A stretch of DNA of 64,000 nt, taken from the NCBI RefSeq assembly GCF_030013205.1, contig NZ_CP122648.1. One strand, written 5' to 3'. Shown piece after piece: positions 1-63,776 of this stretch (the first letter of the stretch is position 1; the number at the start of each line of letters is the position of its first letter). Made by a program: the position numbers and the translations under genes. The notes under the pieces were generated by a model. That model saw nothing but the letters and a program-made list of their open reading frames with translations. It ran no database searches and was not told the origin of the DNA. Origin of the DNA: Escherichia coli. Lineage in GTDB: Bacteria; Pseudomonadota; Gammaproteobacteria; Enterobacterales; Enterobacteriaceae.

Positions 1-1441
1 TATCAGTAAGGGTTGTTTCGCTGTATCGTTCCTGGAAAAACAGTTGCTGCCATTGTCGAACCATCCCTAACCGTTGGTTATCGAGTAAGACGATTTTCAA
101 CGGTAACTGCTTGCGTTTTACGGTGCCCAGCTCTTGCACATTCATCATGAAAGAGCCGTCACCGGAGATACAGACGACGGTATCGTTCGGTCGCGCGACT
201 TGCGCGCCAACCGCCGCAGGTAAACCAAAACCCATGGTACCTAAGCCGCTGGAGGTGATGAAATTTTCCGGACGAGTGTGGGCGATGTGCTGCGCAGCCC
301 ACATCTGGTGCTGCCCCACATCTGTGGTCACGACGCAATCCGCAGGTTTACGATCCGACAGTTGTTTTAACAACAACGGCGCGTAGATAGCGTCACCGGG
401 ATGGTCGTAGCGCCAGGTATGTTCATCAAGCAGCTGCGCGCAGTATTGCTGCCAGTCATTGATATTTAACGGCTGCTGTAATGCTGGTAACAGAGCATTT
501 AAATCACCCTGTAATGCCACATGTGCCTGACGCAGCTTGTTCATTTCTGCCGGGTCGATATCCATATGGATAACACTGGCGAGTGGTGCGAAGGTGTTCA
601 GTTTGCCGGTCACCCGGTCATCAAAACGTGCACCCACGGCGATCAGCAAGTCGCACTCCTGAACCGCGAAGTTCGCCGCTTTGGTGCCGTGCATTCCCAG
701 CATGCCCAGATAGTACGGATAATCTGCTTCAACTGCGCCCAGCCCTTTCAGCGTGCAGGTGGCAGGCATTTTTGTGGTAGCGAGAAATTCACGCAGAGCG
801 GGAACTGCCTGCGCCATGCCCACGCCACCGCCAACGTACAGCATCGGTTTTTGCGCCTTTGCCAGCATCTGGCGCGCTTGCTCGACTTCGGCATGTGGGA
901 AATTCACTTCGTTTTCAACGGTGGTGAACCATGGTTCCAGATCGCCGCTGGCTAACTGGATATCTTTTGGGATATCGACCAGAACCGGACCAGGACGACC
1001 TGAGCTGGCAACGTCGAATGCTTCAGCCATGATGCGCGGCAACTCTTCCAGCGACTGCACCAGAAAGCTGTGCTTGGTACAGGCTAATGACAATCCCAGT
1101 ACATCCACTTCCTGAAATGCGTCAGTGCCGATAAACGGTGCAGATACCTGACCGGTGATGGCAACGACAGGGATGGAATCTAACAGTGCGTCCGCAAGCC
1201 CGGTTATCAGGTTGGTTGCACCTGGACCAGACGTGGCGATACATACGCCAGTTTTGCCGGTAGCACGGGCATAACCGATAGCCGCCATTGCTGCACCTTG
1301 CTCGTGTCGGCACAGCAAGTGTTCCACGCCACCGTCATACAATGCATCGTAAACCGGCATAATTGCGCCACCCGGATAACCGAAAACGGTGTTCACACCC
1401 TGTGCCCGCAACGCATGTACCACCCACTGTGCGCCATTCAT
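1..1441 (-). CDS. ilvG: acetolactate synthase II large subunit, 5' portion (3' end lies beyond window start)
   Basis: Minus-strand translation from ATG at 1439-1441 begins [14 protein letters not shown]; lies directly downstream of ilvL/ilvX; no complete minus ORF is listed here, consistent with an open frame running off the window edge. Confidence 0.85.
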
Positions 1442-1443
1442 AG

Positions 1444-1494
1444 TTAGTTCCCCGTCCTGAATCTTGAGAAACAGAATTTTGTGCTGTTATTCAT
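1444..1494 (-). CDS. ilvX: ilvX small peptide (16 aa)
   Basis: Minus-strand ATG AAT AAC AGC ACA AAA TTC TGT TTC TCA AGA TTC AGG ACG GGG AAC TAA = [16 protein letters not shown], immediately upstream of ilvG start. Confidence 0.6.
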
Positions 1495-1523
1495 TGTCTG
1501 CTCCTCAGTTATGTTTTTAAGGT

Positions 1524-1558
1524 CAAAAAAAACCCCCGGACCTTTCGGTGCGGGGGTC
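1524..1558 (-). terminator. ilvL attenuator terminator (GC-rich hairpin followed by U-run on minus strand)
   Basis: Plus strand aaaaaaaacccccggacctttcggtgcggggg; on the minus strand this is a cccccgcacc..ggtccggggg hairpin followed by eight U, located between ilvL and ilvX. Confidence 0.7.
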
Positions 1559-1580
1559 TTAGTTCGTTAAGGCTTGATCT

Positions 1581-1679
1581 CTAAGCCTTTCCTCGTCCAA
1601 GTGCAGCCCCGCACGGTGGGATAATAATCACCACCACGCTAATCACGACCAGGCTAATCACTCGTAGAAGGACTGTCAT
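1581..1679 (-). CDS. ilvL: ilvGMEDA leader peptide
   Basis: Minus-strand ORF translating MTVLLRVISLVVISVVVIIIPPCGAALGRGKA (Ile/Val/Leu-rich leader); stop TAG at 1581-1583. Confidence 0.8.
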   Translation of the reverse strand: MTVLLRVISLVVISVVVIIIPPCGAALGRGKA

Positions 1680-2031
1680 TTTGTCTTTTCTTGCATCTTG
1701 TTCGAAGGAATGCCTAAAGAGTTACCATAGATTTTGCGAATAGCACAAGATATTTTTTGGCCTATTTTTATGATGTCTTTAATAATTTCAAGAGAAATTG
1801 TTGTTTTTTAAAAAGAAAATAGTGAGTGAAAAAAATTCAATTTCAGTATGAATGTTGTTCCCTTCCTCGTAGTTCATCCTTTGCCCGCTGCATTTTTGCG
1901 AGCATCATTCCACCGCCAGAACAACTCAACTTCACTTACACAAATAAACCGGAATCAGCCACTAAAATTCACGAATTAGCGGGCTACAGCAGCGATATCT
2001 TATGCACATAATGGTGACTCAAGGAGGGCTT

Positions 2032-2211
2032 ATGTCACTGTCAATTGTTCATACCCGCGCAGCCCTGGGAGTAAATGCGCCCCCAATCACTGTTGAGGTA
2101 CATATCAGTAAAGGTCTACCCGGCTTAACGATGGTGGGCTTACCAGAAACAACGGTAAAAGAAGCCCGCGATCGCGTGCGCAGCGCCATTATCAATAGCG
2201 GATTTTTATAA
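2032..2211 (+). pseudogene. comM: comM (yifB) 5' fragment, truncated by island insertion after codon ~57
   Basis: Translation MSLSIVHTRAALGVNAPPITVEVHISKGLPGLTMVGLPETTVKEARDRVRSAIINSGF then diverges (L, stop) at the junction; the rest of the gene resumes at 16913. Confidence 0.85.
2194..2203. repeat. attL core copy (aatagcggat)
   Basis: Identical 10-mer at 16907..16916; lies at the exact point where the comM frame breaks. Confidence 0.5.
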
Positions 2212-2300
2212 ATTAGTGTTTTTTGCTGTTTCATAATGTGCCACGTTGTTCATTATGTTTTTGATTTTTAAGTCTATTACAATTTTCATTGTTCCAGCTT

Positions 2301-2353
2301 GTTCCACGTTGTACCCCTTTGTGCAATGATCGGTGTAGTCACTGGTGTAGTCA
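2301..2353. repeat. Subterminal left repeat (gttccacgttgt ... cggtgtagtcactggtgtagtca), candidate integrase arm-type site
   Basis: Imperfect ~55-bp direct repeat of 16781..16838 near the opposite island end. Confidence 0.45.
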
Positions 2354-2391
2354 TTTTTTTTGCAAACAGGGGAGGAAATGTGAGCAGAGCA

Positions 2392-3609
2392 ATGAACAAA
2401 CTGAGCGACACATTGTTAAGAAAACTTCATGGTAAGCCGGCGGAGAAAAATACGTTTTATAGCGATGGCGGAAATCTGAGCGTGAAATATTTAACATCAG
2501 GGAAATTGACCTGGTATTTCACTTACAGGGCGGGAACGGGAAGGGGTACACCACCGGAACGCCTGAAGCTGGGAAATTATCCTGATCTGAGCCTGAAAGC
2601 AGCCAGGGAAAAAGCAGCACAGTGTCGCGCATGGCTGGCAGAAGGAAAAAATCCACGCCATGAGCTTAATTACTCCATACAGGAAGCACTAAAGCCGGTA
2701 ACGGTGGGCGATGCGATCAGCTACTGGCTGGAAATGCACGTAAAGGAAAACCGTGTCGATTACGTATGCCTGAAAAGCCGCCTTAATAATCACGTCATAC
2801 AGCATATTGGCAATATGCCACTGGATAAATGCGAGTTACGTCACTGGCTGGCCTGTTTTGACCGGATACGCAAAAAATCACCCGTAACATCTGGCCACAT
2901 GATGCAGGCGTGTAAACAGGCGCTTAAGTTCTGCCGTAAACGTCGCTACGCAGTCAGTAACGTTCTGGATGATCTCAACGTGGTGGACGTTGGCAAAAAG
3001 CCGGGCATAAGCGAACGCGTGCTGAGCAACAAAGAACTGAGCGAATTATTACAGGCGCTGGATAAAAAAATATTCCCGCCCTACTACAGCGCACTAATCC
3101 GCCTCCTGATTGTGTTCGGCTGCCGGACCGGAGAACTGAGGCTGTCGGAGATCAGGGAGTGGGATTTTAAGGAAATGCTCTGGACAGTACCGAAAGAGCA
3201 CAGCAAAACGAAGGTCGCCATATTCAGGCCAATACCGGAAAGCATTTTGCCGTTCGTCACACAGCTGGTGGAGCAGAACAGGCACACAGGGCTATTACTC
3301 GGGGAACTGAAACAGGAAGCCAGCGTGTCGCAATACGGCAGATTCACGCACAAAAAATTAAACCATCCGCACTGGTCACTACACGATATACGGCGCACGT
3401 TTACCACGATGCTGAACGATTTAGGCGTGGATCCACATATTGTCGAACAACTCACCGCTCACCAGATGCCAGGGATGCAACGAGTCTATAACCACTCCCG
3501 TTATATCGATGCGAAACGTAATGCGCTGGATATGTGGACAGAGCGATTAGAGATACTGGCAGGTGCTCACGAAAACGTAACCACACTGCCAATAGCCAGA
3601 GAAATATAA
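2392..3609 (+). CDS. int: Tyrosine recombinase / phage integrase
   Basis: ORF 2299..3609; likely start ATG 2392 (MNKLSDT) after GGGAGGA at 2368-2376; C-terminal HDIRRTF...VYNHSRY region consistent with a tyrosine-recombinase catalytic domain; abuts attL. Confidence 0.85.
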   Translation: MNKLSDTLLRKLHGKPAEKNTFYSDGGNLSVKYLTSGKLTWYFTYRAGTGRGTPPERLKLGNYPDLSLKAAREKAAQCRAWLAEGKNPRHELNYSIQEALKPVTVGDAISYWLEMHVKENRVDYVCLKSRLNNHVIQHIGNMPLDKCELRHWLACFDRIRKKSPVTSGHMMQACKQALKFCRKRRYAVSNVLDDLNVVDVGKKPGISERVLSNKELSELLQALDKKIFPPYYSALIRLLIVFGCRTGELRLSEIREWDFKEMLWTVPKEHSKTKVAIFRPIPESILPFVTQLVEQNRHTGLLLGELKQEASVSQYGRFTHKKLNHPHWSLHDIRRTFTTMLNDLGVDPHIVEQLTAHQMPGMQRVYNHSRYIDAKRNALDMWTERLEILAGAHENVTTLPIAREI

Positions 3610-3627
3610 TTTTTTTCGCGATTTTTC

Positions 3628-3690
3628 AGAACGGACACAACGTGAAACAACGAGACACAACGACGAACAACGGCGAACAATCTGGAACAA
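3628..3690 (+). repeat. Array of six ~10-bp direct repeats (RAACAACG family) downstream of int
   Basis: acacaacg tgaaacaacg agacacaacg acgaacaacg gcgaacaatc tggaacaaac read directly from sequence. Confidence 0.4.
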
Positions 3691-3976
3691 ACTTGATTAT
3701 CATCTGACCGACACCCTAAAAAGTTGATTTTCAGTCGTTTTACTGGCTTTTTGTACATTGGCGAATCACTCTTAAAAACATGTAAAAAAGGCGTAAAAAC
3801 AGAATTTTACGCTACCGCATCACAATGAATTAAAAGAGTTTTTATTCTCATTACCCCACTTCTGTAAAACGACCGCCACCAGTGTTTGCCATTCCATAAA
3901 CACCCTGACACAATCCGACCCAACCCAACCCAATAATCCACCCAATGACTCTTTAAGAAACAACAAAGGGGGAATT

Positions 3977-4165
3977 GTGTTAAGCACAGATCGCTTTATA
4001 CGTGAAAAAGAATGTCAGCAACTTACAGGCCTGAGCCGTTCATGCCGCTACCGCCTGGAAAAAGCCGGACAATTCCCATCACGGCGTAAACTCGGTGGTC
4101 GTTCCGTTGGCTGGTCTTTATCCGAAGTTCTGGCATGGAAGGACAGCCGCGAGGCAGTTCACTAA
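3977..4165 (+). CDS. alpA: AlpA-family phage transcriptional regulator (62 aa)
   Basis: GTG start after AAAGGGGGA; translation LTGLSRSCRYRLEKAGQFPSRRKLGGRSVGWSLSEVLAW resembles the AlpA/prophage CP4-57 regulator HTH. Confidence 0.7.
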   Translation: MLSTDRFIREKECQQLTGLSRSCRYRLEKAGQFPSRRKLGGRSVGWSLSEVLAWKDSREAVH

Positions 4166-4217
4166 TCAGGCTGGCGGCACACAGCCGCCTCCCATCCACT
4201 AATACAGAGATTTAACC

Positions 4218-5018
4218 ATGAATACTGGATATACGCCTGTACAGGGGCGGGGCTTCGTTCGGCCTGAAAAACAGAATCTGCAAAATTTCGCTGAAATTAT
4301 TCCGGTTATTTCCGGCGTTATTGGTGGGCGTGAAACCACTATTGTTAGCGCCAGAGCGTTACATAAGGCGTTAGGTGTAGGGCGCGTTTTCCGTTCGTGG
4401 ATCAAGGGGCGCATTGAAGAATACGGGTTCACGGAAGGCGTGGATTATGAGGTTGTTGAATATTTGAGCCGACCCGATCCGGTGAGCGCAAAATCTCGCC
4501 AGCAAACCGCTCTTGAGTACATCATCACAGTGAACATGGCGAAAGAACTGGCGATGGTCGAACGTACCGAACAGGGCCGCGCCGTTCGCCAGTACTTTAT
4601 CAAATGCGAGGAGGAGCTACACAAGGTAGCGCCAGTGCGTTCCGCAGCGTTACGCCGGGAACTGAAAGCCCGTATCACCGTTGCCAGCTACTTTAAGCCA
4701 ATGTGTGCCGCGCTGGAGGCGTACCGGGCTGAACTGGGTAAAAACACGTTCCAGCACCACTACACCACGGAAGCCAATATGCTGGCGCGTATCGTGCTGG
4801 GTGGCATGACTGCAAAACAGTGGGCGCAGGCGAACGGCATCACAGGCGAACCACGCGACCACATGAGCACGTTGCAGCTTGAGCACCTTTCTTACCTTGA
4901 GCAGAGCAATATCACGCTGATTGAGTTAGGCCAGGGCTACCACCAGCGGAAAGCTGAATTAATTCGTCTTTCGCAGCGTTGGTTAGCCCGTCGCATGGAG
5001 GAAAACAGCCATGTGTAA
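4218..5018 (+). CDS. Phage antirepressor-like protein (266 aa)
   Basis: N-terminal ...TIVSARALHKALGVGRVFRSWIKGRIEEYGFTEGVDYEV resembles Bro-N/Rha/ORF6N-type antirepressor domains (recollection, unverified). Confidence 0.55.
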   Translation: MNTGYTPVQGRGFVRPEKQNLQNFAEIIPVISGVIGGRETTIVSARALHKALGVGRVFRSWIKGRIEEYGFTEGVDYEVVEYLSRPDPVSAKSRQQTALEYIITVNMAKELAMVERTEQGRAVRQYFIKCEEELHKVAPVRSAALRRELKARITVASYFKPMCAALEAYRAELGKNTFQHHYTTEANMLARIVLGGMTAKQWAQANGITGEPRDHMSTLQLEHLSYLEQSNITLIELGQGYHQRKAELIRLSQRWLARRMEENSHV

Positions 5019-5414
5019 CGCTCTGACCGTTACAAAAAGAGAAAGCGCCCCGTTGCCGGAGCGCCTTTGTGAACGAATAGCCTACTGCGCCATATTGCTT
5101 ACTGTCTACGAGGCAGATTATAGCGTTGTGGTCGCACAGAGTGAAGGCGCTGATCACCGTTACTACAGCACGCCAGAAATGCAGAATATTTTGCTGCAAA
5201 ATGCCGTTGGTCACGCCGTCCGGAAAGCAAAAAATTTTGCTGGTGGCGCGACTGATGCGATTTTGTCAGGTCGCCAGGTGCTGATCAATCTGATGTCTGA
5301 TTTCGTTCTGGATAAAACAAAGGCGACCGCAGAGGGTCGCCAGTGGGTATTACGGCAAATCAAACTTGAACGCATCACCAACAATGCCACATTTGCGGCT
5401 GGTGGGCAATGTGA

Positions 5415-5603
5415 TCAGTCAGATTTGGTTCGTTCCAGGGTTTGCAACGAGAGCTTTTTCCTGCGCTCTTTAAGGAATTTCTCAAGAGCAAACGAACAAG
5501 GTGCGAATCTTTCTGATTCATGCTCTATCTTTCTGCGCCGTCTTTTCCGTGTCGGTGATAATGTTTTGGTCAATTCTTTATCGGTCATTGTGTTGTCCTG
5601 CAT
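5415..5603 (-). CDS. Small basic hypothetical protein (62 aa)
   Basis: Minus-strand ORF with Arg/Lys-rich segment TRKRRRRKIEHESERF; downstream of the RHH gene on the same strand; no clear SD. Confidence 0.35.
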   Translation of the reverse strand: MQDNTMTDKELTKTLSPTRKRRRRKIEHESERFAPCSFALEKFLKERRKKLSLQTLERTKSD

Positions 5604-5645
5604 AGCAATGCGCCGTAGTTACTCACACCACGGCGCTGATAGTGA

Positions 5646-5843
5646 TTATTCTGATTCTTTGGCCTTCCGGCGCTGTTCATATTTTAATTTGCGTCCACAG
5701 GCATCTAAGACCCATGCGGAAAAATTAGCACTAGGATTAGTTAATTTTTCTTGTTCAACGCTGGCATCAATCCCATCTATAAGCTCATGTGGGAATCGAA
5801 TATTTTTCTTTGCTGATTTGTTGTTTGTGTTACCGCTAGACAT
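5646..5843 (-). CDS. Ribbon-helix-helix (CopG/Arc-like) putative repressor (65 aa)
   Basis: KKNIRFPHELIDGIDASV (beta strand) followed by NFSAWVLDACGRKL (helix) pattern; GAGG SD 7 nt upstream; start abuts the palindromic operator cluster. Confidence 0.55.
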   Translation of the reverse strand: MSSGNTNNKSAKKNIRFPHELIDGIDASVEQEKLTNPSANFSAWVLDACGRKLKYEQRRKAKESE

Positions 5844-5870
5844 TGATGCACCTCACTTAAATGGACTTTA

Positions 5871-5951
5871 TGGGCGCACACAATACAGCAAAAAAAATGA
5901 GATGTTAAGTATTGACATGTGCGCACACATGATTTTAATCTGTGCGCACAG
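5871..5951. promoter_or_regulatory. Divergent promoter/operator region with three TGTGCGCACA palindromes
   Basis: tgggcgcaca 5871-5880, tgtgcgcaca 5918-5927, ctgtgcgcacag 5940-5951; TTGACA at 5912-5917 with a 17-bp spacer and ttaatc as candidate -10, so operators sit in the spacer and just downstream. Confidence 0.5.
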
Positions 5952-6048
5952 TTTGAGTTTTGTCACTCAAATTAAGCAACGCCCCGCAGTGCTCGCAACA
6001 CATGCAGGGCGTCTAACCACCAACGATAGCAAGAGTATCGAGGTAGCT

Positions 6049-6252
6049 ATGAGAAATCATACCACACACCCGCAAGGGCGGGACTCGCACAACCTGAATA
6101 AATATATCTGGCGTTTTATCGCCCTGAGCACCGCACAACCGCGCGTGATTCACATCGTGGCCACCAGCGAACAGGAAGCACGCCAGCAATCTCCTGATGG
6201 CTGCGTGATGGTATTCGCTGCCCGTATTCGTCAGGGGGTAAGTCATGCATAA
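6049..6252 (+). CDS. Hypothetical small protein (67 aa), first gene of early operon
   Basis: Internal ATG of the long stop-free frame, preceded by GAGGTAG; 3' end overlaps the next start (ATG 6245). Confidence 0.4.
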   Translation: MRNHTTHPQGRDSHNLNKYIWRFIALSTAQPRVIHIVATSEQEARQQSPDGCVMVFAARIRQGVSHA

Positions 6253-6610
6253 CCTGTCAATTTCTGACCTTAACTGCATTCAGTTTGACGAGAAATTTAC
6301 CGGGCAGCTACTGGTCCATGTGGAGAACGGGCGCATAGTGCGTAATTACCACCTGCCGGATGGTGCAATTGCCGGAAGTGTTGAAGCATTGCTGGAACTG
6401 GCAGAGCGTGCGCGACTGATTAATCCGTCAACGTGCTATCACGATGATGATCTGCATTTTACCGGACGCATGGTGAGCCATTATGAAAACGGCGTTGAGG
6501 TATCCCGCGAACGTATGCGTGATGATTGCTGTTTCGGCACACTGCCGGAATTTATCGAGTTGCTGACCAGTTGCGGTTATCAGGTTATTCAGGGGGTGAA
6601 TTATGGATAA
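6245..6610 (+). CDS. Hypothetical protein (121 aa) with two copies of a ~50-aa repeat module
   Basis: FTGQLLVHVENGRIV...GSVEALLELAERA and FTGRMVSHYENGVEV...GTLPEFIELLTSCG within one ORF; overlaps neighbours at both ends. Confidence 0.6.
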   Translation: MHNLSISDLNCIQFDEKFTGQLLVHVENGRIVRNYHLPDGAIAGSVEALLELAERARLINPSTCYHDDDLHFTGRMVSHYENGVEVSRERMRDDCCFGTLPEFIELLTSCGYQVIQGVNYG

Positions 6611-6803
6611 TCAGCAAGCAACAATGACAATTACCCTGAGTGCGCCAGATGATTTCACCGGACGCATACTGGTTTACCTGGATAAAGGAAAAGTGAAATC
6701 ACAATGCCGACTGAAAAGTAATGAGATTGTTGGTTCTCCTGAATTTTTTTCTGAACTCTGTATTCGTGCGGAAATAAAACCGGAACTGCTGACAGGAAAA
6801 TAA
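6603..6803 (+). CDS. Hypothetical protein (66 aa), single copy of the same repeat module
   Basis: FTGRILVYLDKGKV...GSPEFFSELCIRAEI; start overlaps the previous stop. Confidence 0.6.
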   Translation: MDNQQATMTITLSAPDDFTGRILVYLDKGKVKSQCRLKSNEIVGSPEFFSELCIRAEIKPELLTGK

Positions 6804-6807
6804 AACC

Positions 6808-7098
6808 ATGAAAAAGAAAAATTCTGGCTTTACTGCCAGCGGCCTCTCTCGGCCTGAAATCCGCCCCGGTGATATTTTCCGGGACACCAGACGCGGGGGA
6901 CGGGTGGTTATTCGTCACGTTACGCCAGGCAATATCACCTACCGCCGTGAGGCTTACGAATATGACTGCGTAATGCCGCGCCGTCAGTTTGATCGTGATT
7001 TTATTCTGGTGGAAAACAAACAACTGGCAGTGGCGAGACGTGCAGCCACGAATATTAAAAAAATCCGGGCAATGTTGGTTGCGGGAGGTAAGAAGTGA
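6808..7098 (+). CDS. Hypothetical basic protein (96 aa)
   Basis: ORF with stop overlapping the GTG start of the helicase gene (GTGA at 7095-7098). Confidence 0.5.
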   Translation: MKKKNSGFTASGLSRPEIRPGDIFRDTRRGGRVVIRHVTPGNITYRREAYEYDCVMPRRQFDRDFILVENKQLAVARRAATNIKKIRAMLVAGGKK

Positions 7099-8507
7099 AA
7101 AACGCACCGAGTCTAAAATATCAGCCGAAGGATAAATTCACTGAGGTAATCATTTTTGCCGGGACGGATGCTTACGCCCATGCTCAACACTGGATTGAAA
7201 GTGAAGGACGAAAACACGGCGATAACGTGCCTCCTGTTTACCTGGGGCCAAAGCAACTGGCAGACCTGGCGAATATCCGCATTATTGACGAGAAACGCCG
7301 TTTTGCGCGTGTCTATATCGCGGGGGAGATAGAGCCAATCCAGATCAATACTATCGCTGAAAAGCTGGCGCTGGCTGGCGTACAGGAGGCGAAATTATAC
7401 AAAGGTATCACCGACCAGGAACCGGAGAACTGGCGCGACTACCTGCAACGGATCCGCGAACAGGCTGAGCGCGAAGAAATGCTTACTGACGAGCAATACA
7501 GCCAGCGAAAAACCACGCTACCAATGAGCATTGGATCGGAAGGATACGATTCACAGCTTAGCTATGTGGTTAAGGGTGTGATTCCGGCTAATTCGTTGTG
7601 CAGCACATACGGTGCGAGCGGTTCTTATAAGTCGTTCCTTGCGTGTTCGTGGGCGTGTCATGTTGCTACCGGTATCCCGTGGGGAGGTCGCAGGGTTGTA
7701 CATGGTGCGGTGATGTATGTCGTTGGTGAGGGCGGGATCGGTGTTCCTCGTCGTATCAAGGCATGGGAACTGGTGAACAGTGAGCAGGTGAAAAATCTGT
7801 ACCTGGTAAATCGTCCAATTTTTCCGGCCGCACCGAGTGATGTTGATGAAATGGTTATTGCTGCCCGACAGGTTGAGCAGGAAACGGGTAAACCTGTACG
7901 CATGATTATTCTGGATACTCTGGCGCGTTGCTTTGGTGGCAGCGATGAAAATGATGCGCGGGATATGGGGGCATTTGTCCATGGATGTGACGAACTGAAA
8001 CGGCGTACAGGCGCTACAGTGCTGGTAATTCACCATTCCGGCAAGGATGAAACAAAGGGTGCGCGCGGTTCCAGTGCGTTTCGTGCAGCACTGGATGCAG
8101 AGTACCGGATACGCCGTGAAGGTGCAGGCAGTGAAGCCCTGGTTATCGCATGTACCAAGATGAAGGATGCGGAGGAACTGAAAGAAATGGCTTGCGATTT
8201 GCGCGAGGTTGAGCTTTTCAAGGATGAAGGCGGGGAGTTAATCACGTCATTGGTGCTGGAGGATAAGCCCCGTCCGCCAGTTGAACTGGAGCGCATCGAG
8301 TACGCTGCTAACAAGACAGAGAATCACGTCGCGCTATGGGGCTGTATCCGTTCACGCACGCAACGCGGAGATAAATGCACTATCCCGTTGTTGCGCGATG
8401 ACATGAAAAAGCTGGGGTATGAGATGAAACACTTCCGGCGCTGGCTGTACAAGCTGGAAGGTGACGGCGTAATCACTATTGACGGTGATGACGTGCGCCC
8501 ACTGTAA
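7095..8507 (+). CDS. Replication helicase/primase-like protein, RecA-fold (AAA_25/RepA-like) ATPase (470 aa)
   Basis: GASGSYKSF Walker-A-like motif, MIILDTLARCFGG and LVIHHSGKDETKGARGSSAF motifs typical of RepA/DnaB-like helicases; iterons immediately downstream. Confidence 0.65.
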   Translation: MKNAPSLKYQPKDKFTEVIIFAGTDAYAHAQHWIESEGRKHGDNVPPVYLGPKQLADLANIRIIDEKRRFARVYIAGEIEPIQINTIAEKLALAGVQEAKLYKGITDQEPENWRDYLQRIREQAEREEMLTDEQYSQRKTTLPMSIGSEGYDSQLSYVVKGVIPANSLCSTYGASGSYKSFLACSWACHVATGIPWGGRRVVHGAVMYVVGEGGIGVPRRIKAWELVNSEQVKNLYLVNRPIFPAAPSDVDEMVIAARQVEQETGKPVRMIILDTLARCFGGSDENDARDMGAFVHGCDELKRRTGATVLVIHHSGKDETKGARGSSAFRAALDAEYRIRREGAGSEALVIACTKMKDAEELKEMACDLREVELFKDEGGELITSLVLEDKPRPPVELERIEYAANKTENHVALWGCIRSRTQRGDKCTIPLLRDDMKKLGYEMKHFRRWLYKLEGDGVITIDGDDVRPL

Positions 8508-18288: not shown

Positions 18289-18322
18289 TTAATCGTCAGA
18301 ATCGGTGTAGTCTTCAGCACCT

Positions 18323-18628
18323 TCAACCTGCGGTTTTACCGCCGGAAAGGGTGTGAAAACGTTTTGGACGCTTGATACGCGTCATATACTTGGACCACAC
18401 GCGTTCTGCTTCTGTCACTGGCTCACGTTCGCCACGGCATACTGCTACGAAGAGTTTCTCTTCCTCGGTAACCGGCTCGCGTTTGCCAAGATCCAACTCA
18501 TTGAAGGCATAACCATGACGCTCAAGCAGTTGTGCCTCTTTGATGGTGAAATCACCATGACGAGAGAATCCACGTGGATAATGTTTATTGTCGAAATATC
18601 GATTAGTCGTCGTAAAGCTTTCCGCCAT
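18323..18628 (-). CDS. maoP: MaoP (YifE), with an apparent C-terminal frameshift
   Basis: [21 protein letters not shown]...HTLSGGK then TAG-stop; the +1 frame encodes an acidic tail [14 protein letters not shown] ending at 18289. Confidence 0.8.
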
Positions 18629-19680: not shown

Positions 19681-19756
19681 TGGCAGGGGCGGAGAGACTC
19701 GAACTCCCAACACCCGGTTTTGGAGACCGGTGCTCTACCAATTGAACTACGCCCCT
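19681..19756 (-). tRNA. trpT: tRNA-Trp
   Basis: Reverse complement reads AGGGGCGTAGTTCAATTGGTAGAGCACCGGTCTCCAAAACCGG...GCCCCTGCCA. Confidence 0.92.
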
Positions 19757-19764
19757 AATTAGGG

Positions 19765-19841
19765 TGGCGGAACGGACGGGACTCGAACCCGCGACCCCCT
19801 GCGTGACAGGCAGGTATTCTAACCGACTGAACTACCGCTCC
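19765..19841 (-). tRNA. aspT: tRNA-Asp
   Basis: Reverse complement reads GGAGCGGTAGTTCAGTCGGTTAGAATACCTGCCTGTCACGCAGG...CCGCCA. Confidence 0.92.
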
Positions 19842-19893
19842 ACCGAATTCTTTTACAACCACCGGTTTTATGACCGGCTTACTGCTTAATTTG

Positions 19894-20013
19894 ATGCCTG
19901 GCAGTTCCCTACTCTCGCATGGGGAGACCCCACACTACCATCGGCGCTACGGCGTTTCACTTCTGAGTTCGGCATGGGGTCAGGTGGGACCACCGCGCTA
20001 AGGCCGCCAGGCA
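19894..20013 (-). rRNA. rrfC: 5S ribosomal RNA
   Basis: 120 nt; reverse complement begins TGCCTGGCGGCC and ends AACTGCCAGGCAT. Confidence 0.92.
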
Positions 20014-20105
20014 AATTCTGTTTCATCAGACCGCTTCTGCGTTCTGATTTAATCTGTATCAGGCTGAAAATCTTCTCTCATCCGCCAAAACATCTTCGGC
20101 GTTGT

Positions 20106-23010
<2,905 letters not shown>

Positions 23011-23203
23011 TCACAACCCGAAGATGTTTCTTTCGATTCATCATCGTGTTGCGAAAATTTGAGAGACTCACGAACAACTTTCGTTGTTCAGTGTTTCAAT
23101 TTTCAGCTTGATCCAGATTTTTAAAGAGCAAATATCTCAAACATCACCCGAAGATGAGTTTTGAGATATCAAGGCAGGTGACTTTCACTCACAAACCAGC
23201 AAG

Positions 23204-23279
23204 TGGCGTCCCCTAGGGGATTCGAACCCCTGTTACCGCCGTGAAAGGGCGGTGTCCTGGGCCTCTAGACGAAGGGGAC
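23204..23279 (-). tRNA. gltU: tRNA-Glu (16S-23S spacer)
   Basis: Reverse complement reads GTCCCCTTCGTCTAGAGGCCCAGGACACCGCCCTTTCACGGCGG...GGGACGCCA. Confidence 0.92.
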
Positions 23280-23364
23280 GTGTCAGTCTGCTTCGCAAGA
23301 CGCCTTGCTTTTCACTTTCTATCAGACAATCTGTGTGAGCACTTCAAAGAACGCTTCTTTAAGG

Positions 23365-24906
<1,542 letters not shown>

Positions 24907-40710: not shown

Positions 40711-40992
40711 ATCGTGCGATCTACTGTGGATAACTCTGTCAGGAAGCTTGGATCAACCGGTAGTTATCCAAAGAACAACCGTTGTTCAGTTTTTGAGTTG
40801 TGTATAACCCCTCATTCTGATCCCAGCTTATACGGTCCAGGATCACCGATCATTCACAGTTAATGATCCTTTCCAGGTTGTTGATCTTAAAAGCCGGATC
40901 CTTGTTATCCACAGGGCAGTGCGATCCTAATAAGAGATCACAATAGAACAGATCTCTAAATAAATAGATCTTCTTTTTAATACCCAGGATCC
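40711..40992. other. oriC: Chromosomal replication origin oriC (DnaA boxes, AT-rich 13-mers, clustered GATC sites)
   Basis: TGTGGATAA/TTATCCACA DnaA boxes at ~40725 and ~40905; 13-mers gatctnttnttt at ~40930-40980; more than 10 GATC within ~280 bp; sits between mioC and mnmG. Confidence 0.9.
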
Positions 40993-53043: not shown

Positions 53044-54873
53044 ATGTGTGGAATTGTTGGCGCGATCGCGCAACGTGATGTAGCAGAAATCCTTCTTGAA
53101 GGTTTACGTCGTCTTGAATACCGCGGATATGACTCTGCCGGTCTGGCCGTTGTTGATGCAGAAGGTCATATGACCCGCCTGCGTCGCCTCGGTAAAGTCC
53201 AGATGCTGGCTCAGGCAGCGGAAGAACATCCTCTGCATGGCGGCACCGGTATTGCTCATACTCGCTGGGCGACCCACGGTGAACCTTCAGAAGCTAACGC
53301 GCATCCGCATGTTTCTGAACACATTGTGGTGGTGCATAACGGCATCATCGAAAACCATGAACCGCTGCGTGAAGAGTTAAAAGCGCGTGGCTATACCTTC
53401 GTTTCTGAAACCGACACCGAAGTGATTGCCCATCTGGTGAACTGGGAGCTGAAACAAGGCGGTACTCTGCGTGAGGCTGTTCTGCGTGCTATCCCGCAAC
53501 TGCGTGGTGCGTACGGTACAGTGATCATGGACTCCCGTCACCCGGATACCCTGCTGGCGGCACGTTCTGGTAGCCCGCTGGTGATTGGTCTGGGCATGGG
53601 CGAAAACTTTATCGCTTCTGACCAGCTGGCGCTGTTGCCAGTGACCCGTCGCTTTATCTTCCTTGAAGAGGGCGATATTGCGGAAATCACTCGCCGTTCG
53701 GTAAACATCTTCGATAAAACTGGCGCGGAAGTAAAACGTCAGGATATCGAATCCAATCTGCAATATGACGCGGGCGATAAAGGTATTTACCGCCACTACA
53801 TGCAGAAAGAGATCTACGAACAACCGAACGCGATCAAAAACACCCTTACCGGGCGCATCAGCCACGGTCAGGTTGATTTAAGCGAGCTGGGACCGAACGC
53901 CGACGAACTGCTGTCGAAGGTTGAGCATATTCAGATCCTCGCCTGTGGTACTTCTTATAACTCCGGTATGGTTTCCCGCTACTGGTTTGAATCGCTGGCA
54001 GGTCTTCCGTGCGACGTCGAAATCGCCTCTGAATTCCGCTATCGCAAATCTGCCGTGCGCCGTAACAGCCTGATGATCACCTTGTCACAGTCTGGCGAAA
54101 CCGCGGATACCCTGGCTGGCCTGCGTCTGTCAAAAGAGCTGGGTTACCTTGGTTCACTGGCAATCTGTAACGTTCCGGGTTCTTCTCTGGTGCGCGAATC
54201 CGATCTGGCGCTGATGACCAATGCCGGTACGGAAATTGGCGTGGCGTCCACTAAAGCATTCACCACTCAGTTAACTGTGCTGTTGATGCTGGTGGCGAAG
54301 CTGTCTCGTCTGAAAGGTCTGGATGCCTCCATTGAACATGACATCGTGCATGGTCTGCAGGCGCTGCCGAGCCGTATTGAGCAGATGCTGTCTCAGGACA
54401 AACGCATTGAAGCGCTGGCAGAAGATTTCTCTGACAAACATCACGCACTGTTCCTGGGCCGTGGCGATCAGTACCCAATCGCGCTGGAAGGCGCATTGAA
54501 GCTGAAAGAGATCTCTTACATTCACGCTGAAGCCTACGCTGCAGGCGAACTGAAACACGGTCCGCTGGCGCTGATTGATGCCGATATGCCGGTTATCGTC
54601 GTTGCACCGAACAACGAATTGCTGGAAAAACTGAAATCCAACATTGAAGAAGTTCGCGCGCGTGGCGGTCAGTTGTATGTCTTCGCCGATCAGGATGCGG
54701 GTTTTGTAAGTAGCGATAACATGCACATCATCGAGATGCCGCATGTGGAAGAGGTGATTGCACCGATCTTCTACACTGTTCCGCTGCAACTACTGGCTTA
54801 CCACGTTGCGCTGATCAAAGGCACCGACGTTGACCAGCCGCGTAACCTGGCGAAATCGGTTACGGTTGAGTAA
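53044..54873 (+). CDS. glmS: Glutamine--fructose-6-phosphate aminotransferase
   Basis: 609 aa; MCGIVGAI N-terminal nucleophile; C-terminus ...NLAKSVTVE; the 3' end is the TnsD recognition region for attTn7. Confidence 0.9.
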
Positions 54874-54898: not shown

Positions 54899-55032
54899 TG
54901 TGGGCGGACAATAAAGTCTTAAACTGAACAAAATAGATCTAAACTATGACAATAAAGTCTTAAACTAGACAGAATAGTTGTAAACTGAAATCAGTCCAGT
55001 TATGCTGTGAAAAAGCATACTGGACTTTTGTT
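54899..55032. repeat. Tn7 right end (Tn7-R) with multiple ~22-bp TnsB-binding repeats
   Basis: Repeated gacaataaagtcttaaactgaa / gacaataaagtcttaaactaga / cagaatagttgtaaactgaaat motifs. Confidence 0.8.
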
Positions 55033-55854
55033 ATGGCTAAAGCAAACTCTTCATTTTCTGAAGTGCAAATTGCCCGTCGTATTAAAGAGGGGCGTGGCCA
55101 AGGGCATGGTAAAGACTATATTCCATGGCTAACAGTACAAGAAGTTCCTTCTTCAGGTCGTTCCCACCGTATTTATTCTCATAAGACGGGACGAGTCCAT
55201 CATTTGCTATCTGACTTAGAGCTTGCTGTTTTTCTCAGTCTTGAGTGGGAGAGCAGCGTGCTAGATATACGCGAGCAGTTCCCCTTATTACCTAGTGATA
55301 CCAGGCAGATTGCAATAGATAGTGGTATTAAGCATCCTGTTATTCGTGGTGTAGATCAGGTTATGTCTACTGATTTTTTAGTGGACTGCAAAGATGGTCC
55401 TTTTGAGCAGTTTGCTATTCAAGTCAAACCTGCAGCAGCCTTACAAGACGAGCGTACCTTAGAAAAACTAGAACTAGAGCGTCGCTATTGGCAGCAAAAG
55501 CAAATTCCTTGGTTCATTTTTACTGATAAAGAAATAAATCCCGTAGTAAAAGAAAATATTGAATGGCTTTATTCAGTGAAAACAGAAGAAGTTTCTGCGG
55601 AGCTTTTAGCACAACTATCCCCATTGGCCCATATCCTGCAAGAAAAAGGAGATGAAAACATTATCAATGTCTGTAAGCAGGTTGATATTGCTTATGATTT
55701 GGAGTTAGGCAAAACATTGAGTGAGATACGAGCCTTAACCGCAAATGGTTTTATTAAGTTCAATATTTATAAGTCTTTCAGGGCAAATAAGTGTGCAGAT
55801 CTCTGTATTAGCCAAGTAGTGAATATGGAGGAGTTGCGCTATGTGGCAAATTAA
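55033..55854 (+). CDS. tnsA: Tn7 transposase subunit TnsA (endonuclease-like)
   Basis: 273 aa; MAKANSSFSEVQIARRIKEGRGQGHGKDYIPWLTVQEVPS. Confidence 0.9.
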   Translation: MAKANSSFSEVQIARRIKEGRGQGHGKDYIPWLTVQEVPSSGRSHRIYSHKTGRVHHLLSDLELAVFLSLEWESSVLDIREQFPLLPSDTRQIAIDSGIKHPVIRGVDQVMSTDFLVDCKDGPFEQFAIQVKPAAALQDERTLEKLELERRYWQQKQIPWFIFTDKEINPVVKENIEWLYSVKTEEVSAELLAQLSPLAHILQEKGDENIINVCKQVDIAYDLELGKTLSEIRALTANGFIKFNIYKSFRANKCADLCISQVVNMEELRYVAN

Positions 55855-57949
55855 TGAGGTTGTGCTATTTGATAATGATCCGTATCGCATTTTGGCTATA
55901 GAGGATGGCCAAGTTGTCTGGATGCAAATAAGCGCTGATAAAGGAGTTCCACAAGCTAGGGCTGAGTTGTTGCTAATGCAGTATTTAGATGAAGGCCGCT
56001 TAGTTAGAACTGATGACCCTTATGTACATCTTGATTTAGAAGAGCCGTCTGTAGATTCTGTCAGCTTCCAGAAGCGCGAGGAGGATTATCGAAAAATTCT
56101 TCCTATTATTAATAGTAAGGATCGTTTCGACCCTAAAGTCAGAAGCGAACTCGTTGAGCATGTGGTCCAAGAACATAAGGTTACTAAGGCTACAGTTTAT
56201 AAGTTGTTACGCCGTTACTGGCAGCGTGGTCAAACGCCTAATGCATTAATTCCTGACTACAAAAACAGCGGTGCACCAGGGGAAAGACGTTCAGCGACAG
56301 GAACAGCAAAGATTGGCCGAGCCAGAGAATATGGTAAGGGTGAAGGAACCAAGGTAACGCCCGAGATTGAACGCCTTTTTAGGTTGACCATAGAAAAGCA
56401 CCTGTTAAATCAAAAAGGTACAAAGACCACCGTTGCCTATAGACGATTTGTGGACTTGTTTGCTCAGTATTTTCCTCGCATTCCCCAAGAGGATTACCCA
56501 ACACTACGTCAGTTTCGTTATTTTTATGATCGAGAATACCCTAAAGCTCAGCGCTTAAAGTCTAGAGTTAAAGCAGGGGTATATAAAAAAGACGTACGAC
56601 CCTTAAGTAGTACAGCCACTTCTCAGGCGTTAGGCCCTGGGAGTCGTTATGAGATTGATGCCACGATTGCTGATATTTATTTAGTGGATCATCATGATCG
56701 CCAAAAAATCATAGGAAGACCAACGCTTTACATTGTGATTGATGTGTTTAGTCGGATGATCACGGGCTTTTATATCGGCTTTGAAAATCCGTCTTATGTG
56801 GTGGCGATGCAGGCTTTTGTAAATGCTTGCTCTGACAAAACGGCCATTTGTGCCCAGCATGATATTGAGATTAGTAGCTCAGACTGGCCGTGTGTAGGTT
56901 TGCCAGATGTGTTGCTAGCGGACCGTGGCGAATTAATGAGTCATCAGGTCGAAGCCTTAGTTTCTAGTTTTAATGTGCGAGTGGAAAGTGCTCCACCTAG
57001 ACGTGGCGATGCTAAAGGCATAGTGGAAAGCACTTTTAGAACACTACAAGCCGAGTTTAAGTCCTTTGCACCTGGCATTGTAGAGGGCAGTCGGATCAAA
57101 AGCCATGGTGAAACAGACTATAGGTTAGATGCATCTCTGTCGGTATTTGAGTTCACACAAATTATTTTGCGTACGATCTTATTCAGAAATAACCATCTGG
57201 TGATGGATAAATACGATCGAGATGCTGATTTTCCTACAGATTTACCGTCTATTCCTGTCCAGCTATGGCAATGGGGTATGCAGCATCGTACAGGTAGTTT
57301 AAGGGCTGTGGAGCAAGAGCAGTTGCGAGTAGCGTTACTGCCTCGCCGAAAGGTCTCTATTTCTTCATTTGGCGTTAATTTGTGGGGTTTGTATTACTCG
57401 GGGTCAGAGATTCTGCGTGAGGGTTGGTTGCAGCGGAGCACTGATATAGCTAGACCTCAACATTTAGAAGCGGCTTATGACCCAGTGCTGGTTGATACGA
57501 TTTATTTGTTTCCGCAAGTTGGCAGCCGTGTATTTTGGCGCTGTAATCTGACGGAACGTAGTCGGCAGTTTAAAGGTCTCTCATTTTGGGAGGTTTGGGA
57601 TATACAAGCACAAGAAAAACACAATAAAGCCAATGCGAAGCAGGATGAGTTAACTAAACGCAGGGAGCTTGAGGCGTTTATTCAGCAAACCATTCAGAAA
57701 GCGAATAAGTTAACGCCCAGTACTACTGAGCCCAAATCAACACGCATTAAGCAGATTAAAACTAATAAAAAAGAAGCCGTGACCTCGGAGCGTAAAAAAC
57801 GTGCGGAGCATTTGAAGCCAAGCTCTTCAGGTGATGAGGCTAAAGTTATTCCTTTCAACGCAGTGGAAGCGGATGATCAAGAAGATTACAGCCTACCCAC
57901 ATACGTGCCTGAATTATTTCAGGATCCACCAGAAAAGGATGAGTCATGA
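55841..57949 (+). CDS. tnsB: Tn7 transposase subunit TnsB (DDE transposase)
   Basis: 702 aa; overlaps the tnsA 3' end; central DDE/RNase-H-like region. Confidence 0.9.
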
Positions 57950-59613
57950 GTGCTACCCGGATTCAAGCAGTTTATCGTGATACGGGGGTAGAGGCTTATC
58001 GTGATAATCCTTTTATCGAGGCCTTACCACCATTACAAGAGTCAGTGAATAGTGCTGCATCACTGAAATCCTCTTTACAGCTTACTTCCTCTGACTTGCA
58101 AAAGTCCCGTGTTATCAGAGCTCATACCATTTGTCGTATTCCAGATGACTATTTTCAGCCATTAGGTACGCATTTGCTACTAAGTGAGCGTATTTCGGTC
58201 ATGATTCGAGGTGGCTACGTAGGCAGAAATCCTAAAACAGGAGATTTACAAAAGCATTTACAAAATGGTTATGAGCGTGTTCAAACGGGAGAGTTGGAGA
58301 CATTTCGCTTTGAGGAGGCACGATCTACGGCACAAAGCTTATTGTTAATTGGTTGTTCTGGTAGTGGGAAGACGACCTCTCTTCATCGTATTCTAGCCAC
58401 GTATCCTCAGGTGATTTACCATCGTGAACTCAATGTAGAGCAGGTGGTGTATTTGAAAATAGACTGCTCGCATAATGGTTCGCTAAAAGAAATCTGCTTG
58501 AATTTTTTCAGAGCGTTGGATCGAGCCTTGGGCTCGAACTATGAGCGTCGTTATGGCTTAAAACGTCATGGTATAGAAACCATGTTGGCTTTGATGTCGC
58601 AAATAGCCAATGCACATGCTTTAGGGTTGTTGGTTATTGATGAAATTCAGCATTTAAGCCGCTCTCGTTCGGGTGGATCTCAAGAGATGCTGAACTTTTT
58701 TGTGACGATGGTGAATATTATTGGCGTACCAGTGATGTTGATTGGTACCCCTAAAGCACGAGAGATTTTTGAGGCTGATTTGCGGTCTGCACGTAGAGGG
58801 GCAGGGTTTGGAGCTATATTCTGGGATCCTATACAACAAACGCAACGTGGAAAGCCCAATCAAGAGTGGATCGCTTTTACGGATAATCTTTGGCAATTAC
58901 AGCTTTTACAACGCAAAGATGCGCTGTTATCGGATGAGGTCCGTGATGTGTGGTATGAGCTAAGCCAAGGAGTGATGGACATTGTAGTAAAACTTTTTGT
59001 ACTCGCTCAGCTCCGTGCGCTAGCTTTAGGCAATGAGCGTATTACCGCTGGTTTATTGCGGCAAGTGTATCAAGATGAGTTAAAGCCTGTGCACCCCATG
59101 CTAGAGGCATTACGCTCGGGTATCCCAGAACGCATTGCTCGTTATTCTGATCTAGTCGTTCCCGAGATTGATAAACGGTTAATCCAACTTCAGCTAGATA
59201 TCGCAGCGATACAAGAACAAACACCAGAAGAAAAAGCCCTTCAAGAGTTAGATACCGAAGATCAGCGTCATTTATATCTGATGCTGAAAGAGGATTACGA
59301 TTCAAGCCTGTTAATTCCCACTATTAAAAAAGCGTTTAGCCAGAATCCAACGATGACAAGACAAAAGTTACTGCCTCTTGTTTTGCAGTGGTTGATGGAA
59401 GGCGAAACGGTAGTGTCAGAACTAGAAAAGCCCTCCAAGAGTAAAAAGGTTTCGGCTATAAAGGTAGTCAAGCCCAGCGACTGGGATAGCTTGCCTGATA
59501 CGGATTTACGTTATATCTATTCACAACGCCAACCTGAAAAAACCATGCATGAACGGTTAAAAGGGAAAGGGGTAATAGTGGATATGGCGAGCTTATTTAA
59601 ACAAGCAGGTTAG
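57946..59613 (+). CDS. tnsC: Tn7 transposition regulator TnsC (AAA+ ATPase)
   Basis: 555 aa; Walker [11 protein letters not shown]; ATGA overlap with tnsB. Confidence 0.9.
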
Positions 59614-59615
59614 CC

Positions 59616-61142
59616 ATGAGAAACTTTCCTGTTCCGTACTCGAATGAGCTGATTTATAGCACTATTGCACGGGCAGGCGTTTATCAAGGGATTGTTAGTC
59701 CTAAGCAGCTGTTGGATGAGGTGTATGGCAACCGCAAGGTGGTCGCTACCTTAGGTCTGCCCTCGCATTTAGGTGTGATAGCAAGACATCTACATCAAAC
59801 AGGACGTTACGCTGTTCAGCAGCTTATTTATGAGCATACCTTATTCCCTTTATATGCTCCGTTTGTAGGCAAGGAGCGCCGAGACGAAGCTATTCGGTTA
59901 ATGGAGTACCAAGCGCAAGGTGCGGTGCATTTAATGCTAGGAGTCGCTGCTTCTAGAGTTAAGAGCGATAACCGCTTTAGATACTGCCCTGATTGCGTTG
60001 CTCTTCAGCTAAATAGGTATGGGGAAGCCTTTTGGCAACGAGATTGGTATTTGCCCGCTTTGCCATATTGTCCAAAACACGGTGCTTTAGTCTTCTTTGA
60101 TAGAGCTGTAGATGATCACCGACATCAATTTTGGGCTTTGGGTCATACTGAGCTGCTTTCAGACTACCCCAAAGACTCCCTATCTCAATTAACAGCACTA
60201 GCTGCTTATATAGCCCCTCTGTTAGATGCTCCACGAGCGCAAGAGCTTTCCCCAAGCCTTGAGCAGTGGACGCTGTTTTATCAGCGCTTAGCGCAGGATC
60301 TAGGGCTAACCAAAAGCAAGCACATTCGTCATGACTTGGTGGCGGAGAGAGTGAGGCAGACTTTTAGTGATGAGGCACTAGAGAAACTGGATTTAAAGTT
60401 GGCAGAGAACAAGGACACGTGTTGGCTGAAAAGTATATTCCGTAAGCATAGAAAAGCCTTTAGTTATTTACAGCATAGTATTGTGTGGCAAGCCTTATTG
60501 CCAAAACTAACGGTTATAGAAGCGCTACAGCAGGCAAGTGCTCTTACTGAGCACTCTATAACGACAAGACCTGTTAGCCAGTCTGTGCAACCTAACTCTG
60601 AAGATTTATCTGTTAAGCATAAAGACTGGCAGCAACTAGTGCATAAATACCAAGGAATTAAGGCGGCAAGACAGTCTTTAGAGGGTGGGGTGCTATACGC
60701 TTGGCTTTACCGACATGACAGGGATTGGCTAGTTCACTGGAATCAACAGCATCAACAAGAGCGTCTGGCACCCGCCCCTAGAGTTGATTGGAACCAAAGA
60801 GATCGAATTGCTGTACGACAACTATTAAGAATCATAAAGCGTCTAGATAGTAGCCTTGATCACCCAAGAGCGACATCGAGCTGGCTGTTAAAGCAAACTC
60901 CTAACGGAACCTCTCTTGCAAAAAATCTACAGAAACTGCCTTTGGTAGCGCTTTGCTTAAAGCGTTACTCAGAGAGTGTGGAAGATTATCAAATTAGACG
61001 GATTAGCCAAGCTTTTATTAAGCTTAAACAGGAAGATGTTGAGCTTAGGCGCTGGCGATTATTAAGAAGTGCAACGTTATCTAAAGAGCGGATAACTGAG
61101 GAAGCACAAAGATTCTTGGAAATGGTTTATGGGGAAGAGTGA
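59616..61142 (+). CDS. tnsD: Tn7 target-site selector TnsD (attTn7/glmS recognition)
   Basis: 508 aa; MRNFPVPYSNELIYSTIARAG; Cys/His zinc-finger-like CPDC...CPKHG. Confidence 0.9.
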   Translation: MRNFPVPYSNELIYSTIARAGVYQGIVSPKQLLDEVYGNRKVVATLGLPSHLGVIARHLHQTGRYAVQQLIYEHTLFPLYAPFVGKERRDEAIRLMEYQAQGAVHLMLGVAASRVKSDNRFRYCPDCVALQLNRYGEAFWQRDWYLPALPYCPKHGALVFFDRAVDDHRHQFWALGHTELLSDYPKDSLSQLTALAAYIAPLLDAPRAQELSPSLEQWTLFYQRLAQDLGLTKSKHIRHDLVAERVRQTFSDEALEKLDLKLAENKDTCWLKSIFRKHRKAFSYLQHSIVWQALLPKLTVIEALQQASALTEHSITTRPVSQSVQPNSEDLSVKHKDWQQLVHKYQGIKAARQSLEGGVLYAWLYRHDRDWLVHWNQQHQQERLAPAPRVDWNQRDRIAVRQLLRIIKRLDSSLDHPRATSSWLLKQTPNGTSLAKNLQKLPLVALCLKRYSESVEDYQIRRISQAFIKLKQEDVELRRWRLLRSATLSKERITEEAQRFLEMVYGEE

Positions 61143-62759: not shown

Positions 62760-62989
62760 AGGAATGACTGAAAGAGCCTGTAAACCCTTTTGTGTAAGTG
62801 CTTTTGCCGGTCAGTTAAAGGTGGCCATTTAAACGGTCACCAAATTCGATCATAAAACGGTTCATGGCCGGCTTCCAGTTGCGGATCGGCATCGTCCATT
62901 TCTTGGTCGCCGCCTGGATAGCCAGGTACACCACCTTCATCGCTGATTCGTCCGTAGGGAACACCTTGAGTTCATATTAATGGAATTTT

Positions 62990-63367
62990 CTACAAATAGC
63001 CTCCGTGGTTTTGAGGGGGGATTACAGACGATCCATAGTAGTAATCCAATGAGTTCTTGAGCGCGGCGACATGTTTGGACGCCTTGGCAAAAATTAGAGC
63101 CTGCTTGAAGTGCAGGCGAGCACGTGCTTGGACGATTGATCCATTCGCGGTCAAAAACTCAATCTTGGATGACAGCGTGTCAGGAAATCCAATATCGAAG
63201 TCCCGCCCCGTGTCAAAGTAGGGCATTTCATGATCAAAGGACGAAGCTTCCCAGGCCACTTCCCTAATATTCCAGCCGCTAGAAACAAGATTTCGTACGA
63301 CTTCATCAACTTTTTTGCTTTCCAACTTGTCACAAAGTGCATAGGCAAGAGCTTTGGCGGCAGACAC
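62990..63367 (-). CDS. Tn7-borne hypothetical protein (125 aa), convergent to tnsE
   Basis: GTG start with AAGAGGA SD; position matches the Tn7 backbone genes between tnsE and the cassette region. Confidence 0.5.
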   Translation of the reverse strand: MSAAKALAYALCDKLESKKVDEVVRNLVSSGWNIREVAWEASSFDHEMPYFDTGRDFDIGFPDTLSSKIEFLTANGSIVQARARLHFKQALIFAKASKHVAALKNSLDYYYGSSVIPPQNHGGYL

Positions 63368-63420
63368 GTGCGTTTCCTCTTAAACATAGGTCGAACGGAT
63401 ACCCGAGGCAAAGCGGAGCA

Positions 63421-63744
63421 TTAGTCCCAAAGCATCTCCGGTAGATCCGGAGGCTCCATACTGAAGGCATGGCATCTTGGGCATTGATATTTGAAACTTC
63501 TCTCTAGATAGCAGGGATTTCTTGGCCTTGCCTCATGCTGATAGCTTGTAAATATCACACGATCCTTAGCCCCACAAAGTGAGCATACTCCGTAGCTTTC
63601 ATTTATAGAAATCGTCGTTAGATTGTCGCAGCATGTGCACGTTCCGACTATTTGCTCAGGAAGCATCGCCATACCTTGGCCTAGGTAAAGAAGATCAGAC
63701 TCGTAGCCACATCGGTGGCAACTGAGCTTGTACGCAATGCCCAT
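63421..63744 (-). CDS. Tn7-borne Cys-rich (zinc-ribbon-like) hypothetical protein (107 aa)
   Basis: CHRCGYE...CTCC...CSLCG...CPRCH cysteine pairs; GGTGAGA SD. Confidence 0.5.
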   Translation of the reverse strand: MGIAYKLSCHRCGYESDLLYLGQGMAMLPEQIVGTCTCCDNLTTISINESYGVCSLCGAKDRVIFTSYQHEARPRNPCYLERSFKYQCPRCHAFSMEPPDLPEMLWD

Positions 63745-63776
63745 CTGGTTGTCTCACCTGAATCGTAACGTCAGAG

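Follow-up and report, generated by a model that had tools for sequence, protein, structure and literature searches.

The locus considered here raises the question of whether ilvG, the gene for the catalytic subunit of acetohydroxyacid (acetolactate) synthase II (AHAS II), is intact or carries the frameshift known from Escherichia coli K-12. AHAS II is composed of IlvG and the small subunit IlvM, and condenses pyruvate with a second pyruvate or with 2-ketobutyrate. Isozymes I and III are inhibited by valine, unlike AHAS II. The K-12 frameshift in ilvG is polar on ilvEDA. That other E. coli lack it has, like the frameshift itself, been textbook knowledge since 1981. The premature UGA of K-12 ilvG is located at gene nucleotides 982-984, and restoration of the frame in MG1655 leads to valine resistance, AHAS II being insensitive to valine (PMC8605374). 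In the B strains, ilvG is intact (PMC3446290).

The stretch of DNA analysed, referred to below as the window, comprises 64,000 nucleotides of the E. coli contig NZ_CP122648.1. Positions 1-1441 belong to a wild-type, uninterrupted ilvG encoding the AHAS II catalytic subunit, a reading given a probability of roughly 95% when the predicted enzyme function and valine resistance are included. In the ilvLXGMEDA operon it is the first gene that encodes an enzyme, and the strain is a porcine enterotoxigenic E. coli, essentially strain ETEC4079. The features of the locus are as follows.

Positions 1..1441, minus strand: ilvG, codons 1-480 of 548 (open translation; NF006524; start as in RefSeq for three genomes).
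Positions 74..163, minus strand: ThDP/Mg2+-binding motif GDG...NQ, residues 427-456, conserved in the alignment to PDB 6lpi.
Positions 456..458, minus strand: the TGA triplet that forms the K-12 premature stop (codon 328), out of frame here (alignment).
Positions 462..465, minus strand: ATAT dinucleotide repeat with both units kept (MAFFT alignment; sequence read directly).
Positions 1301..1303, minus strand: codon of Glu47 (in RHEQGA), the conserved catalytic glutamate of ThDP-dependent enzymes; the same motif occurs in AHAS I, PDB 6lpi.
Positions 1444..1494, minus strand: ilvX, gene of a 16-aa peptide (RefSeq WP_001387183.1), identical to K-12.
Positions 1525..1558, minus strand: ilv attenuator terminator, which acts in ilvGMEDA attenuation; a G+C-rich hairpin, GACCCCCGCACCGAAAGGTCCGGGGG, precedes T8, and the alignment shows no difference from K-12.
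Positions 1581..1679, minus strand: ilvL, leader peptide of 32 aa rich in Val, Ile and Leu, MTVLLRVISLVVISVVVIIIPPCGAALGRGKA (ORF; RefSeq WP_063085300.1).

The ilvG frame starts with the ATG at 1441-1439, 2 nt from the end of ilvX, and translation of the minus strand yields 480 codons with zero stops up to window position 1. This bears out the sequence-only reading, which had claimed a stop-free frame from ATG 1441 to the window edge. The chance of finding 480 open codons in random sequence is about 1e-10, assuming uniform codon use. The same start is annotated in RefSeq for K_EC180, ETEC1748 and ETEC4079, three genomes that are identical here, and the window contains the 5' 87% of the gene.

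The identity of the product was assessed with the NCBIfam models. With the equivalog NF006524 (acetolactate synthase 2 catalytic subunit), the 480-aa product reaches 942.5 bits, above the curated threshold of 738, and it is matched end to end along profile positions 1-480 of 548. The open reading frame could alternatively belong to a paralogue, such as ilvB, ilvI or the gene of another ThDP enzyme, and the protein is indeed matched by 55 NCBIfam families of ThDP enzymes. The AHAS II equivalog nevertheless clearly outscores all of them: the generic large-subunit model gives 649 bits for the same product, and the AHAS III models give no more than 570 bits. The surroundings of the gene also show exact synteny with ilvL, ilvX, yifB, maoP and hdfR. 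The paralogue is thus refuted by the combination of scores and synteny, and its probability is negligible. The operon context agrees with ilvG: ilvL, the attenuator and ilvX are present in the window, and ilvM is present in the three closest genomes.

The decisive site for the comparison with K-12 is the dinucleotide repeat. The window, K_EC180 and the K-12 ilvG (taken from the derivative JW5503, where RefSeq flags the gene as 'frameshifted') were aligned with MAFFT. The sole gap in the alignment is 2 bp absent from K-12 at gene positions 977-978, which correspond to window positions 465-464. The site reads GTTAAATATCAATGAC in the window and GTTAAATCAATGAC in K-12. The K-12 junction represents the loss of one unit of ATAT, and therefore the placement of the gap is ambiguous within window positions 465-462. 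The loss of one AT brings the TGA in frame as codon 328 and limits the K-12 product to 327 aa; in the window the same triplet, at 458-456, straddles codons N328 and D329. The ATAT to AT change after gene position 976, which defines the K-12-type pseudogene allele, is absent from the window. The alignment thereby confirms two further claims of the earlier reading, namely that the K-12 gene stops after about 327 codons, near position 460, and that the strain is not K-12-like at ilvG, since ATAT is retained and 52 substitutions separate the two sequences across the 1,647-nt gene, besides the 2-bp gap.

An open frame could also be regained by a K-12-type gene through a secondary compensating mutation, as in the ilvO or ilvG+ revertants. 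Such K-12 revertants are well known, and 1-bp deletions at the premature TGA were found among those selected in laboratory evolution, with valine resistance demonstrated in the revertants (PMC8605374). They share the open ilvG frame with the window; the difference is that in the revertants, which are K-12 otherwise, an indel at a second site restores the frame, whereas the window has the ancestral sequence, with the canonical ATAT that at least 4,625 natural genomes share, and no compensating indel. The 52 other gene positions that differ from K-12, as well as the flanking island and Tn7, neither of which is in K-12, argue against this origin too. The alignment of the two genes refutes it, and a revertant is hardly credible here. 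An ilvG that was never broken remains the preferred reading: the strain, like nearly all natural E. coli, never had the 2-bp deletion of K-12, and since that deletion was never present, AHAS II and valine resistance would be expected.

The window can be placed beside two further known forms of the locus. The intact ilvG of natural and B-lineage strains (BL21(DE3), WP_001012606.1; O157:H7) is the same gene, with ATAT at the lesion site and likewise the operon order ilvL, ilvX, ilvG, ilvM, and the product in the genomes nearly identical to the window has 548 aa. The 1,647-nt ilvG of BL21 differs from that of the window by 46 nt and about 7 amino acids, and these differences are only allelic. The K-12 pseudogene (ilvG_1/ilvG_2) is the orthologous locus, with attenuator, ilvX and ilvM identical to those of the window lineage. 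In contrast to the window, it has one AT missing at 462-465 and ends at codon 328, and of its 52 substitutions 8 change an amino acid.

The distribution of the two junctions was determined in 5,426 complete E. coli genomes with three short queries, each having the lesion at its middle (41 nt for the K-12 junction), for each of which the other allele was unable to supply the 28-nt seed. The first two queries left 461 genomes unmatched, of which the third, carrying the O157-type SNP, explained 338. The genomes are divided as follows.

Intact junction: 4,625 of 5,426 genomes.
Intact junction with one nearby SNP, O157:H7 type: 338 of 5,426 genomes.
K-12 junction: 340 of 5,426 genomes.
Unclassified: 123 of 5,426 genomes, in which other SNPs in the 28-nt seed or a missing locus are possible.

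The intact junction is therefore present in at least 4,963 genomes, which is at least 91% of the complete genomes. All 40 of the 40 sampled genomes with the K-12 junction are laboratory K-12 derivatives (MG1655, DH5-alpha, JM109, HB101, MC4100, J53 and similar). Intact ilvG is the norm in E. coli and K-12 is the exception, and only the K-12 pedigree has the broken gene. The finding of an intact ilvG is true and already known; it serves only to confirm that the strain is a natural isolate, here of a porcine ETEC lineage, rather than a K-12 laboratory strain. A megablast search with window positions 1-1750 located the locus, always annotated as ilvL/ilvX/ilvG, in 5,425 of the 5,426 genomes, and identity to the window of at least 99% occurs in only 20 of them. 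A genome that may lack the locus is NCCP12480, in which the match covers the 1,750-nt query only up to base 1,266 and carries the annotation ilvA.

Codons 481-548 of ilvG, its stop and ilvM lie outside the window and were read from the near-identical assemblies ETEC4079, K_EC180 and ETEC1748, whose ilvG DNA is identical. The window aligns over its whole length of 64,000 bases to ETEC4079 (NZ_CP122643.1), a strain from pig faeces in Belgium, with 0 mismatches and one 1-nt indel. The sequence-only reading had named an in-frame stop just beyond the window start as the observation that would overturn it. No such stop just past window position 1 occurs in any of the three genomes; the frame stays open, in ETEC4079 as in the other two, for 68 further codons (NPDFLML...SEMLEKLS*) up to the normal stop, which results in a full product of 548 aa (WP_001600750.1). 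The stop is overlapped by ilvM, which is intact in all three genomes and encodes the same protein as in K-12 (WP_000983255.1). The next genes after ilvM are ilvE and ilvD. K_EC180 is 100% identical to the window over positions 1-1750, and its identity ends at 2203; by BLAST, the window differs from it by a 14.7-kb insertion and by a different sequence after glmS. ETEC1748 is closer to the window than K_EC180, yet it is without Tn7 and without 2.8 kb of the inserted island.

The alternative is that the frame is open and the enzyme nevertheless inactive or absent, through a missense change of the lineage, through an unseen lesion of ilvM or of the 3' end of ilvG, or through a change in regulation. 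Both the catalytic glutamate and the ThDP/Mg2+ motif of ThDP-dependent enzymes are present and intact, and the full-length protein aligns to E. coli AHAS I (PDB 6lpi) with E = 4e-161. In comparison with an in-silico repaired K-12 IlvG, 8 differences are found (C146S, T180N, A222T, H287L, H333Y, R338L, S342T and H494P), seven of which recur in one or more of the other natural alleles in a comparison of seven. The exception is R338L, which is absent from the six other alleles and is thus unique among the seven; against a damaging role, residue 338 falls in a poorly conserved stretch that differs between the isozymes, and its counterpart in IlvB is Gln. In nucleotide sequence, the window ilvG differs from the other alleles at 20-74 positions. 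Other natural pairs differ at 21-72 nt, so that this is ordinary polymorphism.

The position of the gene end outside the window leaves room for a lesion there, which is countered by the intact 3' end and ilvM in the three genomes with identical ilvG. Altered regulation could be sought in the upstream region, where three positions are found only in the window in a sample of seven, and where the leader peptide carries a rare A3V change, present in 17 of 5,426 genomes. The leader and the attenuator are nevertheless intact, with the same attenuator hairpin as in K-12, and the allele has been kept intact in 17 independent isolates from pigs, among them K_EC180, ETEC1748 and ETEC4079. An inactive or absent enzyme is very unlikely. 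It is a reasonable conclusion, as the sequence-only reading proposed, that this strain would make a functional, valine-insensitive AHAS II, and the strain should be valine-resistant. In practical terms, it should resist valine and express ilvEDA without the polarity of K-12, and the state of ilvG is relevant only for choosing minimal-medium conditions or a metabolic model of the strain.

A3V in the leader results from GCC to GTC at window position 1672; it is the sole difference of the leader from the common form and introduces a seventh Val codon. Its 17 carriers among the 5,426 complete E. coli genomes are all from swine (17 of 17), O139:H1 strains and strains named ETEC among them. In the ilvL-yifB intergenic region, the substitutions at 1938 and 1950 are window-only in the sample of seven. 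This ilv allele occurs in one lineage only. As a lineage adaptation, A3V could conceivably shift the attenuation of ilvGMEDA towards a stronger dependence on the valine supply, a prospect of only slight probability; more probably the allele just marks the clone and is neutral.

A 14.7-kb integrative island (2204-16900) interrupts yifB, the homologue of comM, after about 170 nt of the gene. Imperfect direct repeats of 16 bp border the island on either side, at 2188-2203 (ATTATCAATAGCGGAT) and at 16901-16916 (ATTATAAATAGCGGAT). The following island features were assigned.

Positions 2380-3609: tyrosine integrase.
Positions 4218-5018: AntA-like protein.
Positions 7095-8507: RepA/AAA_25 helicase.
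Positions 12273-12890: 205-aa ORF, PHROG 11810, function unknown.
Positions 12955-14994: 679-aa ORF, PHROG 7694, with a C-terminal part resembling a lytic transglycosylase.
Positions 15046-15573: small-terminase-like HTH protein, a weak match.

The island also encodes a phage-repressor-like domain and, by RefSeq annotation, ProQ/FinO, PerC and NUDIX proteins, as well as phage-family proteins without known function; PHROGs assigns both the 205-aa and the 679-aa ORF to phage families of this kind. Neither Pfam nor PADLOC gave a match for the 205-aa and 679-aa ORFs. The island looks like a phage satellite or a PICI-like element. A single match covering at least 80% of window positions 1-4000, which include ilvG, the yifB stub and the integrase, is present in 26 of the 5,426 genomes. 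The cargo of the island varies between sister strains: ETEC1748 is without the stretch 12268-15045, and segment 5289-6095 also differs between it and the window.

The remaining landmarks of the window are listed below.

Positions ~19681-24905, minus strand: rRNA operon with 16S, tRNA-Glu, 23S, 5S, tRNA-Asp and tRNA-Trp, between hdfR and yieP.
Positions 40922-40954, minus strand: oriC M and R 13-mers GATCTGTTCTATTGTGATCTCTTATTAGGATCG, an exact single match between mioC and mnmG.
Positions 54899-64000: Tn7, with tnsA, B, C, D and E as ORFs of 273, 702, 555, 508 and 538 aa.

The oriC 13-mers were matched with the exact K-12 M+R sequence, whereas the generic 13-mer consensus GATCTNTTNTTTT gave no match in the window. 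Since the 13-mers were matched exactly, the window spans the chromosomal replication origin. The position of the rRNA operon corresponds to rrnC of K-12.

The sole difference between the window and ETEC4079 is TTTT against TTT at about 18333-18336, in maoP (minus strand, about 18289-18628). The extra T in the window causes a frameshift, by which ...LSGGKPQVEG... becomes ...LSGGKTAG*, and the 112-aa MaoP would end at about residue 98-101. As the indel lies in a homopolymer, it may reflect faulty assembly rather than biology.

Tn7 occupies the canonical attTn7 site. Its right end, TGTGGGCGGACAATAAAGTC..., starts at 54899, which is 25 bp past the glmS stop (54871-54873). In K_EC180 and ETEC1748, which have no Tn7, lpfA-O113 of the lpf-O113 operon is found about 300 bp after the glmS stop. 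Past the end of the window, the Tn7 of ETEC4079 continues with an IS256 remnant, sat2, a frameshifted aadA1 and an intI2 with an internal stop.
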